Assembly (NCBI GenBank): GCA_030740155.1
Contig: JASLXV010000069.1
Location: 1 to 64,000 of the forward strand
Direction: 5' to 3'
DNA length: 64,000 bases
From: Dehalococcoidia bacterium
Lineage (GTDB): Bacteria; Chloroflexota; Dehalococcoidia; Lucifugimonadales; UBA3495
The notes beneath the pieces were generated by a model, which was not told the origin of the DNA, searched no databases, and saw only the letters and a list, made by a program, of their open reading frames with translations. The translations under genes and the position numbers were made by a program. Every line of letters begins with the position of its first letter. The first letter of the stretch is position 1. Below are positions 34,258 to 46,521 of the stretch, piece after piece.

Positions 34258-34309
34258 GCGCTCCGGTCACTCGCCCCGGCCCATCAGCTCCAAAAAGGCC
34301 GATCACGCT

Positions 34310-34788
34310 CCTTCGACAAGCTCAGGATGAACGGATTTCCCCCAAGCTCACCACGAGCGGTTCCTCCCAGCTCGCGGTGACTTCAGGGCAAACAGGTTCC
34401 TCCCCGTTCGTGGTGGGTTCAGGGCAGACGGATATTCCCCGTTCGTGGTGAGCTTGTCGAACCACGGTGGCCGACAATTGTGTGGTCTCCAATTCTCTGC
34501 AATATATGTTCCAACTTCTTGCTAGCCACCGCGAGTCACCGCGAGAGGGCGTTGCCCCAAGCCAGTCATTCCTCCGCAAGTGTCATGTTGAGCCGGCCGC
34601 AGCGGCAAAGCATCTGGGCAGAGATTCTCCTCCGCCTCCCCGGATCCCTCGGCCTTCCCGCGAAGGACTCGGGATGACAGGGCAACGCCCATTTTCGTCG
34701 GCCGTGGTGCCCCATACAATCGGGGCATGAACGGTTCCGAGGAGCGAAACTACACCGTCATTCCGAGGAGCGAAGCGACGAGGAATCT
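34310..34788. repeat. Cluster of REP-like palindromic elements
   Basis: TTCGACAAGCTCA (34312) is inverted with TGAGCTTGTCGAA (34449), with internal CCGTTCGTGGTG repeats. Also TGTCATG...GGGATGACA (34581-34679) and GTCATTCCGAGGAGCGAAGCGACGAGGAATCT (34757). Confidence 0.7.
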
Positions 34789-34849
34789 GGTGCGGGGTTC
34801 GTCCATTGCAGCCTGGACCCGCCACCCCAGGCCCATCGCATCACTCAGG

Positions 34850-34886
34850 AAACCAAAGAGGCCCGGCGAAGAGCCGGGCCTCAAAA
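34850..34886 (-). terminator. Intrinsic terminator after the tubulin-like operon
   Basis: 10-bp stem GAGGCCCGGC/GCCGGGCCTC, followed on the minus strand by TTTGGTTT. Confidence 0.7.
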
Positions 34887-34907
34887 GCAGTTGCCGTTTT
34901 ACGTCGA

Positions 34908-36491
34908 TCAGCTCACGGGGGGATGATACTCCGGAATCACCCCATCGGCGATGACGCCCAACTCTTTCCACAGCCCGTGGAGCAATATCTGGTCGCTGGG
35001 CAGCCCATTAGAGACACGGGGTATCAGCTCTTCACGGCTATCCCGCATGGCCTTGAGGTCTTCGTCGATCAACTCGATTATGGCATTCCTCACCCCGGTA
35101 TCGGTGCCGATATCAGGGTAGAGTTTCCAGCACTCGGCGGTCACGCTCTTCAGCCACTCGCTTTGGGTGGAACTAGCGCCCCTGTTCTCCGCGAAGTGCC
35201 AGGCGTACCATGCGGTCACCATCTCACGAAACATCGTGAGGTCTTCGGCCGGCGCACCCACTATCGACATCTGGACGTCGAATCGGTGGTTGTCTCCGGG
35301 ATGGCCCTCTACCGCCGCGAACTTGCGCCCGCCTCCCAGGCCCCTCAAGACGATATCGTGGACGTTGGAAGCGGTGATGCCAACGCCCGAAGCCGAGTCA
35401 ACGTGACCCACTCCTACTTCCCCAACCCTCCACAGCTTCTGCTCCATCGCGGAGGCGCCCCGGTGCATGTCAGCCAGCAGTTCGCCCAGGTCCTCGCCGA
35501 ACCGCGCCCCATGGGAGATGATGGAAAGGAATCCGGCCTCCAGCGATACATTATCCTGAATCTTCTGAGACATTGACTCGGCGAGAAGGTCCTCTAATTG
35601 TTGCAGGCCCACACGGTTGGTGCCATACACGGACACTCCCGCAAGGGCGCGCCGGACACTCTCTGCTACGTCGAACGCATCGCTGTTGCTAAGTTGGAAC
35701 CTGTCCAGAATCCGATGGGCAATGGCCAACGCCTGCTCTCCCCGCAGCAGGTTCCTCACGGTGGGATCTTCGCTCTCAAAGGACCATAACTCAGGATTGG
35801 TCACCTCTTGGAAGAGGCCACCGCCCAGGCTTGCACGCTTCCGCAGCGCCGGTGTGACCTCGTACCACGATGACAGGTATTCCTTGATCTCAGCTTCCAT
35901 TGCCTCCACAATTTCGGCCACGTGGTTCTGGCAAAGGTCCTCCAGCCAGTAGCCCATCTGGGTTTTCCATCGTGGGAGGCGCTTCCGCCGGTCCGCGGGG
36001 TCTACCAGGTCATTGTAGGAATGCTCCGCAGTTTGGGGCAATTCACGCCGGAAGGTGCGAGTAGAGAGGTTCTCCCACCTCTTGACGGAAGGCTCTTGAT
36101 ACGGCGCCTGGATGATGTCATATAGGAAGCGAGTTTCGAGCCTGGTGCGAATCTCGCGGCTGAGTTCGTCTCGCTTGAGGTCGGCAAAACTCTCGGCTCG
36201 CGCTTTCTCGTTCCGGATTTGGCCGTTAGCCTCAAGGATCAGATGGTTGCTGATGTTCCCTTCCGGGCTCAGCTGCTCGAATACCAGCTGAACAGCCTTG
36301 CCAACCTCTTCCATGGCGCCATGCATCACCGAGTTCAGTTGCGCGAGGACATCCTGAGAACTGGCCCCGCTCGTCTCCGGAGTCAAGAAATCCAGGGGGT
36401 CCATTGTTTGAAGCATCCGGGTGGACGCCTCGAAGAAAGATTCTCGCTTCCGTGGCACCTTTAACTTGTTGAACAATCGTCCTATTCCCAT
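34908..36491 (-). CDS. Hypothetical 527-aa helical protein, partner of the tubulin-like protein
   Basis: Long acidic, helix-rich ORF starting 6 nt after, and in frame with, the tubulin-like ORF. No recognised motif. Confidence 0.8.
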   Translation of the reverse strand: MGIGRLFNKLKVPRKRESFFEASTRMLQTMDPLDFLTPETSGASSQDVLAQLNSVMHGAMEEVGKAVQLVFEQLSPEGNISNHLILEANGQIRNEKARAESFADLKRDELSREIRTRLETRFLYDIIQAPYQEPSVKRWENLSTRTFRRELPQTAEHSYNDLVDPADRRKRLPRWKTQMGYWLEDLCQNHVAEIVEAMEAEIKEYLSSWYEVTPALRKRASLGGGLFQEVTNPELWSFESEDPTVRNLLRGEQALAIAHRILDRFQLSNSDAFDVAESVRRALAGVSVYGTNRVGLQQLEDLLAESMSQKIQDNVSLEAGFLSIISHGARFGEDLGELLADMHRGASAMEQKLWRVGEVGVGHVDSASGVGITASNVHDIVLRGLGGGRKFAAVEGHPGDNHRFDVQMSIVGAPAEDLTMFREMVTAWYAWHFAENRGASSTQSEWLKSVTAECWKLYPDIGTDTGVRNAIIELIDEDLKAMRDSREELIPRVSNGLPSDQILLHGLWKELGVIADGVIPEYHPPVS

Positions 36492-36497
36492 AATTCT

Positions 36498-37538
36498 CTA
36501 CCTGTACCCGGAATTCCACTTGGTCTGAAGGTATTGGCGTGCCGTCAGGTTGAAAAAGCCTTCTAAGAGACCGACTTCCTTGGAGCAGATGGAGCCAAAC
36601 CGGGCGTCCACCTTGTTGTTGGCCTCTCTCATGGTTTCGTGGTAGCGGGCCCACCAGTCTGATCCCGTCCCCCATGATTCGCCGACCAGTGTTTCCAGGA
36701 CCCGGGCGATGTGGGCCCGCTGCGCGGGGAGAGAATCTTTGGGCGACCGGTGCATCAACGCGATGTCGAAATGGGGCCCTGTCGCCTGGATCTTCTTGTC
36801 GGGGTAGACGGTGACGTAGAAGGTGTCCGACCCGGTATGTCTTCCATCACCCACGGATACCCCGGTCGCGGCGCGAAGGAACTGTATCGTGGAGTAAGCA
36901 TTTCTCAACTGGAGGGGATAGCTGTTGTCCGGGTCTCTGGACATGCCCCTCTGGGGCACCAACAGATGGAGGACCACGCTGAAGTTGTAGGCGGTCCCCC
37001 TGGCCTCGGAGAGGGCCGCCAGCAGGACCGGTAGCGCGCCGATGGTCCCACCACCAAGGAAGCCTATCACATGGACCCTCAGGTAAGTCTTCCCCTCGTA
37101 GTAGGGGCACACTTCCCCAATCATCGCGTCTAGGTGTCCCCTCATCGCCGCGTAGTTGTACCGGGCGGCAACACCGGCGTTGGCCAGCATCCCCAGCGCG
37201 CCCTCCCGGGAGAGGCTGAGGTTCTTCAACTCCGGCACGCACTCGGTAATCCAGGGCCGCATATCCCGCAGATTGGAAAAATGGGGAAGCGTCAGGGGGA
37301 TGAAACGCGACGCCCTGGAGATTTCGTCACGAGTGGCCTCCCTGGTGTCCATGTACAGGAACCCCAGGGATTTCCTGTCGTTCAGGCTCCAGCTCTTGGT
37401 GATGTCTTCTAACTGTCTCCCGACTTGGCACGCTGTCGAGCCCAGTCCGACGACCACCGCTGGAGATGCAACCCGCTGCGCCGACCTTGTCCCTCCCAAT
37501 TTAGAGAGGAAGGTGCTTCGAATTGCTGAAGTTACCAT
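36498..37538 (-). CDS. Divergent tubulin/FtsZ-superfamily protein (Tubulin_2-like domain)
   Basis: Motifs in family order: PAVVVGLGSTA, FLYMDT, W...GA, VHVIGFLGGGTIG, LLVP, NAYSTIQFL, FD. AGGAGG RBS. Confidence 0.75.
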   Translation of the reverse strand: MVTSAIRSTFLSKLGGTRSAQRVASPAVVVGLGSTACQVGRQLEDITKSWSLNDRKSLGFLYMDTREATRDEISRASRFIPLTLPHFSNLRDMRPWITECVPELKNLSLSREGALGMLANAGVAARYNYAAMRGHLDAMIGEVCPYYEGKTYLRVHVIGFLGGGTIGALPVLLAALSEARGTAYNFSVVLHLLVPQRGMSRDPDNSYPLQLRNAYSTIQFLRAATGVSVGDGRHTGSDTFYVTVYPDKKIQATGPHFDIALMHRSPKDSLPAQRAHIARVLETLVGESWGTGSDWWARYHETMREANNKVDARFGSICSKEVGLLEGFFNLTARQYLQTKWNSGYR

Positions 37539-37629
37539 AGGGCCTCCTGAGCTGTTACCGGCGATGTAATGAACACGGATTCAAATAGGATACCAATACG
37601 AAAACAGCCATGGGTAACATAGCCGTTCA

Positions 37630-37658
37630 ATGATATTCCCTTCTTATATGTGTGTCAA
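37630..37658 (-). promoter_or_regulatory. Sigma70-type promoter of the tubulin-like operon
   Basis: TTGACA-17 nt-TATCAT on the minus strand in an AT-rich intergenic region. Confidence 0.75.
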
Positions 37659-45576: not shown

Positions 45577-46521
45577 TCAGGTTTCGTTTTGCGGCACCCC
45601 GGTCAGCTTACCGAAGTTCAAATAACGATCGAGGAAGACGTCTATCCACTCTTTCCGGGTGTTGCGCTGGACGGACGCGCACACGCTCTCAAGCGTCCAG
45701 GGCTCGAATGTATTGGCTTCGATGAGACACGCGTTGTAATCGTCCACGGCGCGGGCACAGAATTCGTTTCGTTCGGGATACAGGAACACAAAGAAGCCAT
45801 CATCGAAATCTGCTGCCGCCAGCAAGCTGCCCGCCAGTAGATGGTCCCGCCACACCTGTTGAAGTGGCTGTTTTTGAAGTAGCTTCAGGCGGTCATCCCT
45901 GAAACAGCCCATGGTGCGAGCTACTTCGATGTAACGGGGCCGATGCCTGGCCGGTTTGCCTAGCAGGTTTTCGTGGTACTTTACCTCTACGCCGACGAAA
46001 CCCCTCCCACCTTTCGAGGTAATATAATTGATATAGACGTCAAAAGCGGAGTTGTCCCCGGTGTAATTGTCGTCTCCTCGGCCTGGCGAGTACTCGAACT
46101 CGATACCGGTAACCTCTGCAATACGGCCGCCGCTCAGTGCGCCAAGAGACGACGTGGCTAACGATAGATCTTGTTGGAGTTCGCCGAACAGGTTGAATGC
46201 CAGGGGTTGGCTCGACAACAAGTCGTTAAATATCCTCGGCCGTCCATACAGCTTGCCACTGCTTTTGGTTTTGTCGAGCACCTCCTGCCCCACGACTCCG
46301 CGCACCGTTTCCGTGAGGTAATTCGACAATGTCTCCTCGGCCCATGGCATTGCCAACCGTGAGCCGAGGAGCCTGCTTCCGCCTCTACCTCGGTGCTCAC
46401 CGATCGGGTAGCCACGTTCCACACGCCACATGGACTGCAACACCCGGGCCTGACGCTGGAAATTTCGCCGGTCGATCTTCTCGAACACTTGGTAACGCCT
46501 CGCAATTTCATCAAGGTTCAT
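45577..46521 (-). CDS. Putative PD-(D/E)XK restriction-endonuclease-like protein (PGN_0703-like)
   Basis: LLSSQPLAFNLF, SAFDV...GVEVKYHE, QQVWRDHLL. Visibly lower GC than neighbours. Confidence 0.7.
   Translation of the reverse strand: MNLDEIARRYQVFEKIDRRNFQRQARVLQSMWRVERGYPIGEHRGRGGSRLLGSRLAMPWAEETLSNYLTETVRGVVGQEVLDKTKSSGKLYGRPRIFNDLLSSQPLAFNLFGELQQDLSLATSSLGALSGGRIAEVTGIEFEYSPGRGDDNYTGDNSAFDVYINYITSKGGRGFVGVEVKYHENLLGKPARHRPRYIEVARTMGCFRDDRLKLLQKQPLQQVWRDHLLAGSLLAAADFDDGFFVFLYPERNEFCARAVDDYNACLIEANTFEPWTLESVCASVQRNTRKEWIDVFLDRYLNFGKLTGVPQNET

Follow-up and report, generated by a model that had tools for sequence, protein, structure and literature searches.

Organisation of the locus

The window examined here is a 64,000-nucleotide (nt) stretch of the genome of a marine Dehalococcoidia bacterium (contig JASLXV010000069.1, assembly GCA_030740155.1), which carries on its minus strand two adjacent genes, referred to as A and B, that are almost certainly the two halves of a split gene of the FtsZl1 (Tubulin_2) lineage. 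Open reading frame (ORF) A (36498..37538) encodes 346 amino acids (aa) with the Tubulin_2/FtsZl1 nucleotide-binding domain and is followed, after a gap of 6 nt, by ORF B (34908..36491), which has its own ATG and encodes 527 aa. ORF A is preceded by a sigma-70-type promoter, TTGACA-17-TATCAT (37630..37658), matching 11 of 12 consensus positions, and by the ribosome-binding site AGGAGG (37543..37548), located 4 nt before the ATG at 37538, while an intrinsic terminator with a 10-bp stem (34858..34882) follows ORF B. A first-pass annotation of this DNA had proposed these five elements, all of which lie where it placed them. It had also described the unit as set among metabolic genes beside a cluster of repetitive extragenic palindromic (REP) elements, in agreement with the flanking genes, a thiamine pyrophosphate (TPP) enzyme and a 6PGDH/HIBADH-type dehydrogenase, and with the multi-copy REP-like repeats found downstream of, and outside, the two-gene unit (34291..34800).

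In a consensus scan of the window alone, neither promoter-like sites (3 versus 1.8 ± 1.8 in shuffles) nor terminators (2 versus 4.8 ± 2.5) exceeded chance. The signals are nevertheless regarded as real, because they are conserved across the 73 loci of the pair obtained from a genome collection, all of which are labelled as Dehalococcoidia, SAR202, Chloroflexota or uncultured bacterium. Promoter-like sites with at least 9 of 12 matches occur no further than 200 nt from A in 61 of the 71 loci that could be scored, as opposed to 5 of 213 coding control windows, GGAG or GAGG occurs within the last 16 nt before A in 67/71 loci, and a terminator-like hairpin is present 3' of B in 44/72 loci compared with 13/216 control windows. 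The A–B junction is bridged by RNA-library contigs in six of eight runs from three studies; four contigs (two studies) stop at 34892-34896, beside the terminator, one continues to 34767, and two extend to 37585 and 37595, near the promoter. These contigs, which have no DNA control, give a weak hint that A and B share one transcript.

Probable origin of the pair from a single gene

An exhaustive search with B returned 36 proteins, including P0229 (969 aa) and P0230 (850 aa), which are the only two database proteins to contain A and B as one chain. Their N-termini are homologs of A (41% identity and an expect value (E) of 5e-80 for P0229; 39%, E 4e-76 for P0230), and a homolog of B follows in both (E 1e-41 and 5e-32, respectively), the A match falling within the first 330 residues and the B match starting at around residue 355. 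P0229 additionally ends in a PKD-like domain (residues 896-953, E 2.7e-5, below the cut-off). The homology of the downstream part is thus clear for the fused forms and weak for the full-length, vWA-linked FtsZl1 proteins, since hhalign aligned B 257-423 with the C-terminal part of the nearest full-length Chloroflexota FtsZl1 proteins at a probability of 57.8% (E 1e-4) with the motif order visible.

A tree was constructed from 35 N-terminal domains, comprising 10 split, 2 fused, 9 of the 11 near and 8 far sequences together with 3 FtsZ and 3 CetZ-like proteins. Split and fused forms make up a single long-stemmed clade with a support of 100/100, in which the fused rows are basal and the split rows group at 88/95 (not starred). 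The nearest full-length Chloroflexota FtsZl1 proteins form the sister group (91/89, not starred), whereas the deeper joins are unsure owing to long branches. Gene fission is the simplest reading of split forms nested inside a clade with fused forms. The fused homologs, the hhalign match and the tree also correct the first-pass annotation in one respect, in that B is not the unknown partner it was taken for; it derives from the same ancestral protein as A, of which it represents the C-terminal portion.

B directly follows A in 73 of 73 loci, and partner profiles are empty nearby, as expected of the conserved, self-contained two-gene unit that had been proposed. If the locus were a decayed remnant, or if one long gene merely looked split through a sequencing or readthrough artefact, this would explain why the stop codon of A is TAG in 69/73 loci, why the 6-nt gap of the window is in frame, and why the frames are broken in three loci (L066, which contains a transposase, L086 and L090). 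However, TAG is the commonest stop of the long ORFs of the genome (400/865), and the gap is in frame in only 13/73 loci, which, together with the ATG of B, indicates a true split rather than readthrough. Both genes are moreover under strong purifying selection: the median ratio of nonsynonymous to synonymous substitution rates (dN/dS) is 0.034 for A and 0.065 for B compared with 0.024-0.048 for three neighbouring genes (8 disjoint pairs from 41 loci, with four broken loci left out). Decay or artefact, to which hardly any probability remains, is thereby refuted by the frame distribution and dN/dS. The break in L066, a case from a single genome, is due to a DDE transposase lying inside B (L066:11767-13050).

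Protein A and the FtsZl1 family

The FtsZl1 family was described by Makarova and Koonin (2010; PMC2875224) and is equated with Pfam PF13809 (Tubulin_2) in PMC9871819; only computational descriptions of FtsZl1/Tubulin_2 were found in the literature searched. Protein A scores 32.8 bits against PF13809 (curated cut-off 27; E 5.9e-8), which supports the tubulin/FtsZ fold suspected earlier, while the PF00091 profile found no match in A. Like FtsZl1 proteins, A carries the N-terminal FtsZ/tubulin nucleotide-binding fold. Pseudomonas aeruginosa FtsZ aligns with A as far as residue 253 and not beyond, and the C-terminal end of A consists of a strand (313-321) followed by a helix (327-341), with residues 309-327 falling below 50 in the predicted local distance difference test (pLDDT) when A is folded alone. 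Its median identity of 72% corresponds to the conservation of core enzymes over the whole length.

The motifs GLGSTA, GALGMLANAG, GGGTIGA and NAYSTIQF, quoted earlier as signs of altered GTP loops, are all present in A. The deviation itself is confirmed, but the change in the T1 loop is not specific to the split unit, because it is common to full-length relatives that retain GGGTGSG. The T4 loop reads GGGT[VISC]G in split A versus GGGTGSG in the nearest full-length relatives, so that one residue is lost and the FtsZl1 signature GGGTG(S/T)G is replaced by a shorter GGGT-x-G; the T3 loop of split A has lost its conserved Arg. Residues G162-G164, T165 and G167 are invariant in 64/64 rows. D294 and E301, invariant in 61 split rows, are candidate T7 catalytic acids only.

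Like FtsZl1, the pair combines an FtsZ-like domain at the N-terminus with an extended helical segment and a C-terminal domain, and it coexists with a normal FtsZ. It differs in that the signature loop is shortened, in that the coiled coil and helical C-terminal domain, which in FtsZl1 belong to the same chain, are encoded by a separate gene in 73/73 loci, and in that the vWA, kinase, GTPase and OmpA neighbours that characterise the operons of most FtsZl1 members are absent. The absence of a vWA partner from the locus had already been noted, and none of the 3,738 locus ORFs matched the vWA-partner profile, the search having used no separate profiles for kinase, GTPase and OmpA genes. Since the signature-loop, single-chain and operon features fail despite descent from the family, we regard the pair as a non-canonical FtsZl1 member.

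The nearest full-length FtsZl1 proteins (L127-L136 and L140, from the same phylum) match A in hhalign at a probability of 99% (E 8e-19) and share with it a non-GG T1 loop. Unlike the split pair, they are single chains of 830-1060 aa with intact GGGTGSG/GAGGIR loops, encoded in operons of a vWA protein, the tubulin-like protein and usually a second long ORF. The second long ORF (745-1180 aa) follows the full-length gene in L127-L131, L133-L136 and L140, and also in L122-L125; its start resembles by eye the first tubulin strand, those scanned had no Pfam match, and it is possibly a degenerate second tubulin-like subunit. This operon, together with three vWA proteins in the host genome, would be in line with a vWA or second tubulin-like partner acting in trans, in which case the unit would not be functionally self-contained. 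We consider this very improbable, as a search of 15,471 genome ORFs with the partner profiles (vWA and second ORF) yielded no more than two short weak matches (E 0.003-0.005), as that of the 3,738 locus ORFs yielded none, and as one of the three vWA proteins belongs to a cobaltochelatase and another lies beside a CbbQ/NirQ ATPase.

Protein B and the predicted A:B complex

Protein B consists of a basic/aromatic N-terminal peptide, a long helical bundle (approximately 45-221) and an alpha/beta C-terminal region (approximately 340-480). No family, PDB or Atlas match and no transmembrane helix were found for B. The N-terminal peptide is basic and contains F/W in 68/73 loci, compared with 4% of 865 long genome ORFs, and a second basic patch at 165-176 contains at least four K/R in 61/61 rows. 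The start of B (window 36491-36430) encodes an Arg/Lys run and then a nearly invariant Ser18 that closes the basic peptide, which may act in membrane anchoring or be a target of phosphorylation. Folded alone with AlphaFold2, residues 345-374 and 386-413 have a pLDDT below 50. In our reading, the helix-strand-helix-strand-strand-helix spacing of residues 340-435 resembles the second half of the tubulin C-terminal domain.

The complex was modelled from A 18-346 and B 12-515 with GTP and 64-row alignments in three runs, alongside three controls. The interface score ipSAE was 0.90 in the three runs versus 0.00 for the best of the controls; 116 of 157 solved complexes attain the mark applied to this score, as do 2 of 215 mismatched pairs, and these counts are only roughly applicable here, as our own alignments were used and GTP was included. 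At least 94% of contacts are shared between the runs, the partner pLDDT is at least 83, and the pLDDT of B rises from 62 alone to 83-85 with A, that of the other chain from 72 to 88-89, corresponding to gains of about 16-22 points. The predicted strand pairing is antiparallel in the register A314-320 with B413-406, the best contacts being A314-B413, A316-B410, A317-B409, A318-B408, A320-B406 and A211/212/215-B424/427/428; B471-474 also touches A219-220. Pairing of the last strand of A with the last strand of B had been predicted before the complex was modelled and then appeared in the model. In tubulin, strand S7 pairs with S10, and helices H11-H12 cross the N-terminal domain, so that the predicted contacts fit tubulin topology.

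On the basis of the model, A and B very probably form an obligate heterodimer, and what A lacks of the tubulin C-terminal domain is likely contributed by B, for which the sequence support is weak. The assignment of individual elements, according to which B would provide S8-S10 and H10-H12 of a tubulin/CetZ-type C-terminal domain with an arm placed after S7/H9, is a somewhat better than even prospect. Several points weigh against this interpretation. Halves of split genes tend to pass the complex test, which shows likeness to a folded unit and not binding in cells; CetZ-like profiles match B over 92 columns at the predicted place with an E of only 0.042, a match that is not significant, since one of the 9 control windows and one of the 40 shuffles scored better; and the profile test of B against FtsZ gave no match. 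If B does complete the fold, as the model suggests, the "coiled coil" of FtsZl1 would be an arm inserted inside the tubulin fold, and FtsZl1 would have to be seen as a whole tubulin bearing this long arm instead of as a shortened head attached to a coiled coil. For the C-terminal domain of FtsZl1, the description in PMC2875224 reports that no similarity to known domains, including those of tubulin and FtsZ, was detected, and our literature search found no published description of the split form or of an inserted-arm architecture; the mapping would therefore be new if confirmed. The solved CetZ, TubZ, FtsZ and tubulin structures (4b45, 4ei7, 2vaw and 7quc) show 11-18% identity and lack a long inserted arm.

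Possible mechanism and function

Our overall proposal, whose chances we consider evenly balanced, is a two-chain tubulin fold with a helical arm that would serve as a GTP-binding, membrane-associated housekeeping scaffold. About 330 residues of helical arm would be inserted after S7/H9, with the gene break at the start of the insertion, and A and B would reassociate into one tubulin fold carrying the long arm, strand 313-321 of A pairing antiparallel with strand 405-413 of B, and helices 417-431 and 465-477 of B packing on helix 208-223 of A. The conserved glycine loops probably still bind guanine nucleotide, and, given the shortened T4 and altered T3 loops, hydrolysis may be slow or dependent on another factor, a suggestion that could go either way. 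In the weakest step, the basic/aromatic N-terminus and the 165-176 patch of B might bind anionic membranes and the heterodimer might oligomerise on the inner membrane, which seems rather more doubtful; such an oligomer would shape or organise the membrane without the vWA membrane protein that anchors the relatives. The membrane step is suggested by these two basic segments, by the membrane remodelling predicted for FtsZl1 in the description of 2010 (PMC2875224), and by a sub-threshold likeness to dynamin-like stalks. The bacterial dynamin-like proteins themselves (IniA, LeoA and the Campylobacter jejuni dynamin-like protein) have a different GTPase fold, their matches are within background, and the pair lacks their transmembrane paddle.

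Alternatively, the pair could be a soluble, non-polymerising nucleotide-binding scaffold or sensor, in which the head reports GTP/GDP or another nucleotide and the arm binds a partner encoded elsewhere. The region after the central helix makes filament contacts in tubulins, and the predicted interface buries part of it (A 286-311); the T4 loop shorter by one residue, the T3 loop without its Arg and the lack of a transmembrane helix in B point in the same direction. However, no candidate partner is conserved nearby, and the whole-length conservation of A would be more typical of many self-contacts, so that this alternative appears unlikely, although it is the strongest of those considered.

Extended to the whole family, the membrane-associated two-chain scaffold leads to the tentative and rather improbable picture of FtsZl1 proteins as complete tubulins with a 330-residue arm in the C-terminal domain, working as a dynamin-like head-and-stalk machine, which here would be two-chain, strand-complemented and membrane-binding via a new basic N-terminus. 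If true, one of the abundant deep-ocean bacterial groups would possess a two-chain cytoskeletal element. Within the tubulin superfamily, FtsZl1/Tubulin_2 forms a widespread branch. The pair offers the simplest known setting for testing the inserted-arm idea, as it comprises two soluble genes without accessory proteins, and head and arm are already separated by the natural break.

Distribution, genomic context and the question of defence

Of 36 family genomes, 13 contain A, which was found in none of 24 other families of the order. B was detected in 54 of 150 family genomes, and within a genus its presence is close to all-or-none (g7 19/20, g21 20/21, g2 0/21, g12 0/17). The usual neighbours are the 6PGDH-type gene (66/74 loci), an amidohydrolase (62/74) and the TPP enzyme (51/74), and the conserved neighbours comprise metabolic genes, EVE and RecQ-type genes and one unknown gene. 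Among five pair-less genomes checked, one keeps the region together as an empty site, in which a distance of about 160 nt separates the TPP gene from the 6PGDH-type gene.

Distant FtsZl1 genes lie in conflict-type loci, as had been pointed out for Tubulin_2 relatives: L123:383-2886 and L124:2128-3144 are beside cas1 (L123 with a reverse transcriptase (RT)), and L137:597-3317 is beside a GAP1-N2/GAP1-M gene. Kaur et al. (2020; PMC7159879) assign proteins that combine a tubulin domain with coiled coils to predicted conflict systems, the GAP1-N2/DO-GTPase systems, for which multimeric assemblies are proposed and whose combination of tubulin domain and coiled-coil/helical region is like that of the pair. 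The pair might accordingly be read as a minimal anti-phage or conflict system, a reduced core of the vWA-tubulin (GAP1-N2/DO-GTPase) systems that oligomerises on infection. The cas1/RT (L123, L124) and GAP1-N2 (L137) neighbours of distant Chloroflexota FtsZl1 genes, the patchy distribution with an empty site in one relative and the EVE gene near 50/74 loci would be consistent with this. In the description of Kaur et al., however, those systems belong to firmicutes and actinobacteria and include DO-GTPase, GAP1, FNIII and vWA genes, none of which is conserved near the pair; GAP1-N2 was not found in the host genome (93.7% complete), and no conserved DO-GTPase/FNIII cluster was noticed in the neighbourhoods, where no family search was made. 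No effector gene is conserved nearby either, neither A nor B matched any PADLOC 2.0 family at E up to 1, and no relative of A or B was found in viral contigs or plasmids. The site among metabolic genes is fixed, presence tracks the genus, and dN/dS is low. Of the earlier suggestion of a minimal cytoskeletal, scaffold or defence system, the scaffold reading is preferred here, and defence is improbable in view of the missing vWA and second tubulin-like genes, the fixed site, the neighbour-like evolution and the absence from viral contigs and plasmids.

The host genome also carries FtsZ (C67) and two stand-alone CetZ-like genes (PF00091 + PF21011) at G000:C50:42847-44103 (= L091:9848-11104) and on G000:C60 (L147:1426-2643), which together with the pair amounts to an unusually rich tubulin set for a bacterium. 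CetZ_C matches occur in 24/36 family genomes and in 0/24 other families of the order, and CetZ-like proteins of Dehalococcoidia are mentioned in PMC9871819.

Several minor observations concern the surroundings of the pair. The EVE-domain gene (e.g., L071:15437-15913) and a nitroreductase (60/74 loci) are missing from the copy of the region in the window. One clade encodes, at a distance of a few genes upstream, a conserved protein of 257 aa without a Pfam match (L078:5067-5840 and 22 other loci). Some genomes possess the pair twice, with one copy lying away from the usual site (L063 and L067; G441:C3, where the second copy refers to B). The REP-like repeats comprise at least two families, two elements matching 89 and 52 times in the genome, counts that cover both strands and in which palindromes may be counted twice; elements of 34291-34800 also occur in many further RNA contigs. 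Elsewhere in the window, a PD-(D/E)XK nuclease gene (PF20796, PF22558 REase-ARP) lies amid metabolic genes at 45577-46521 on the minus strand.
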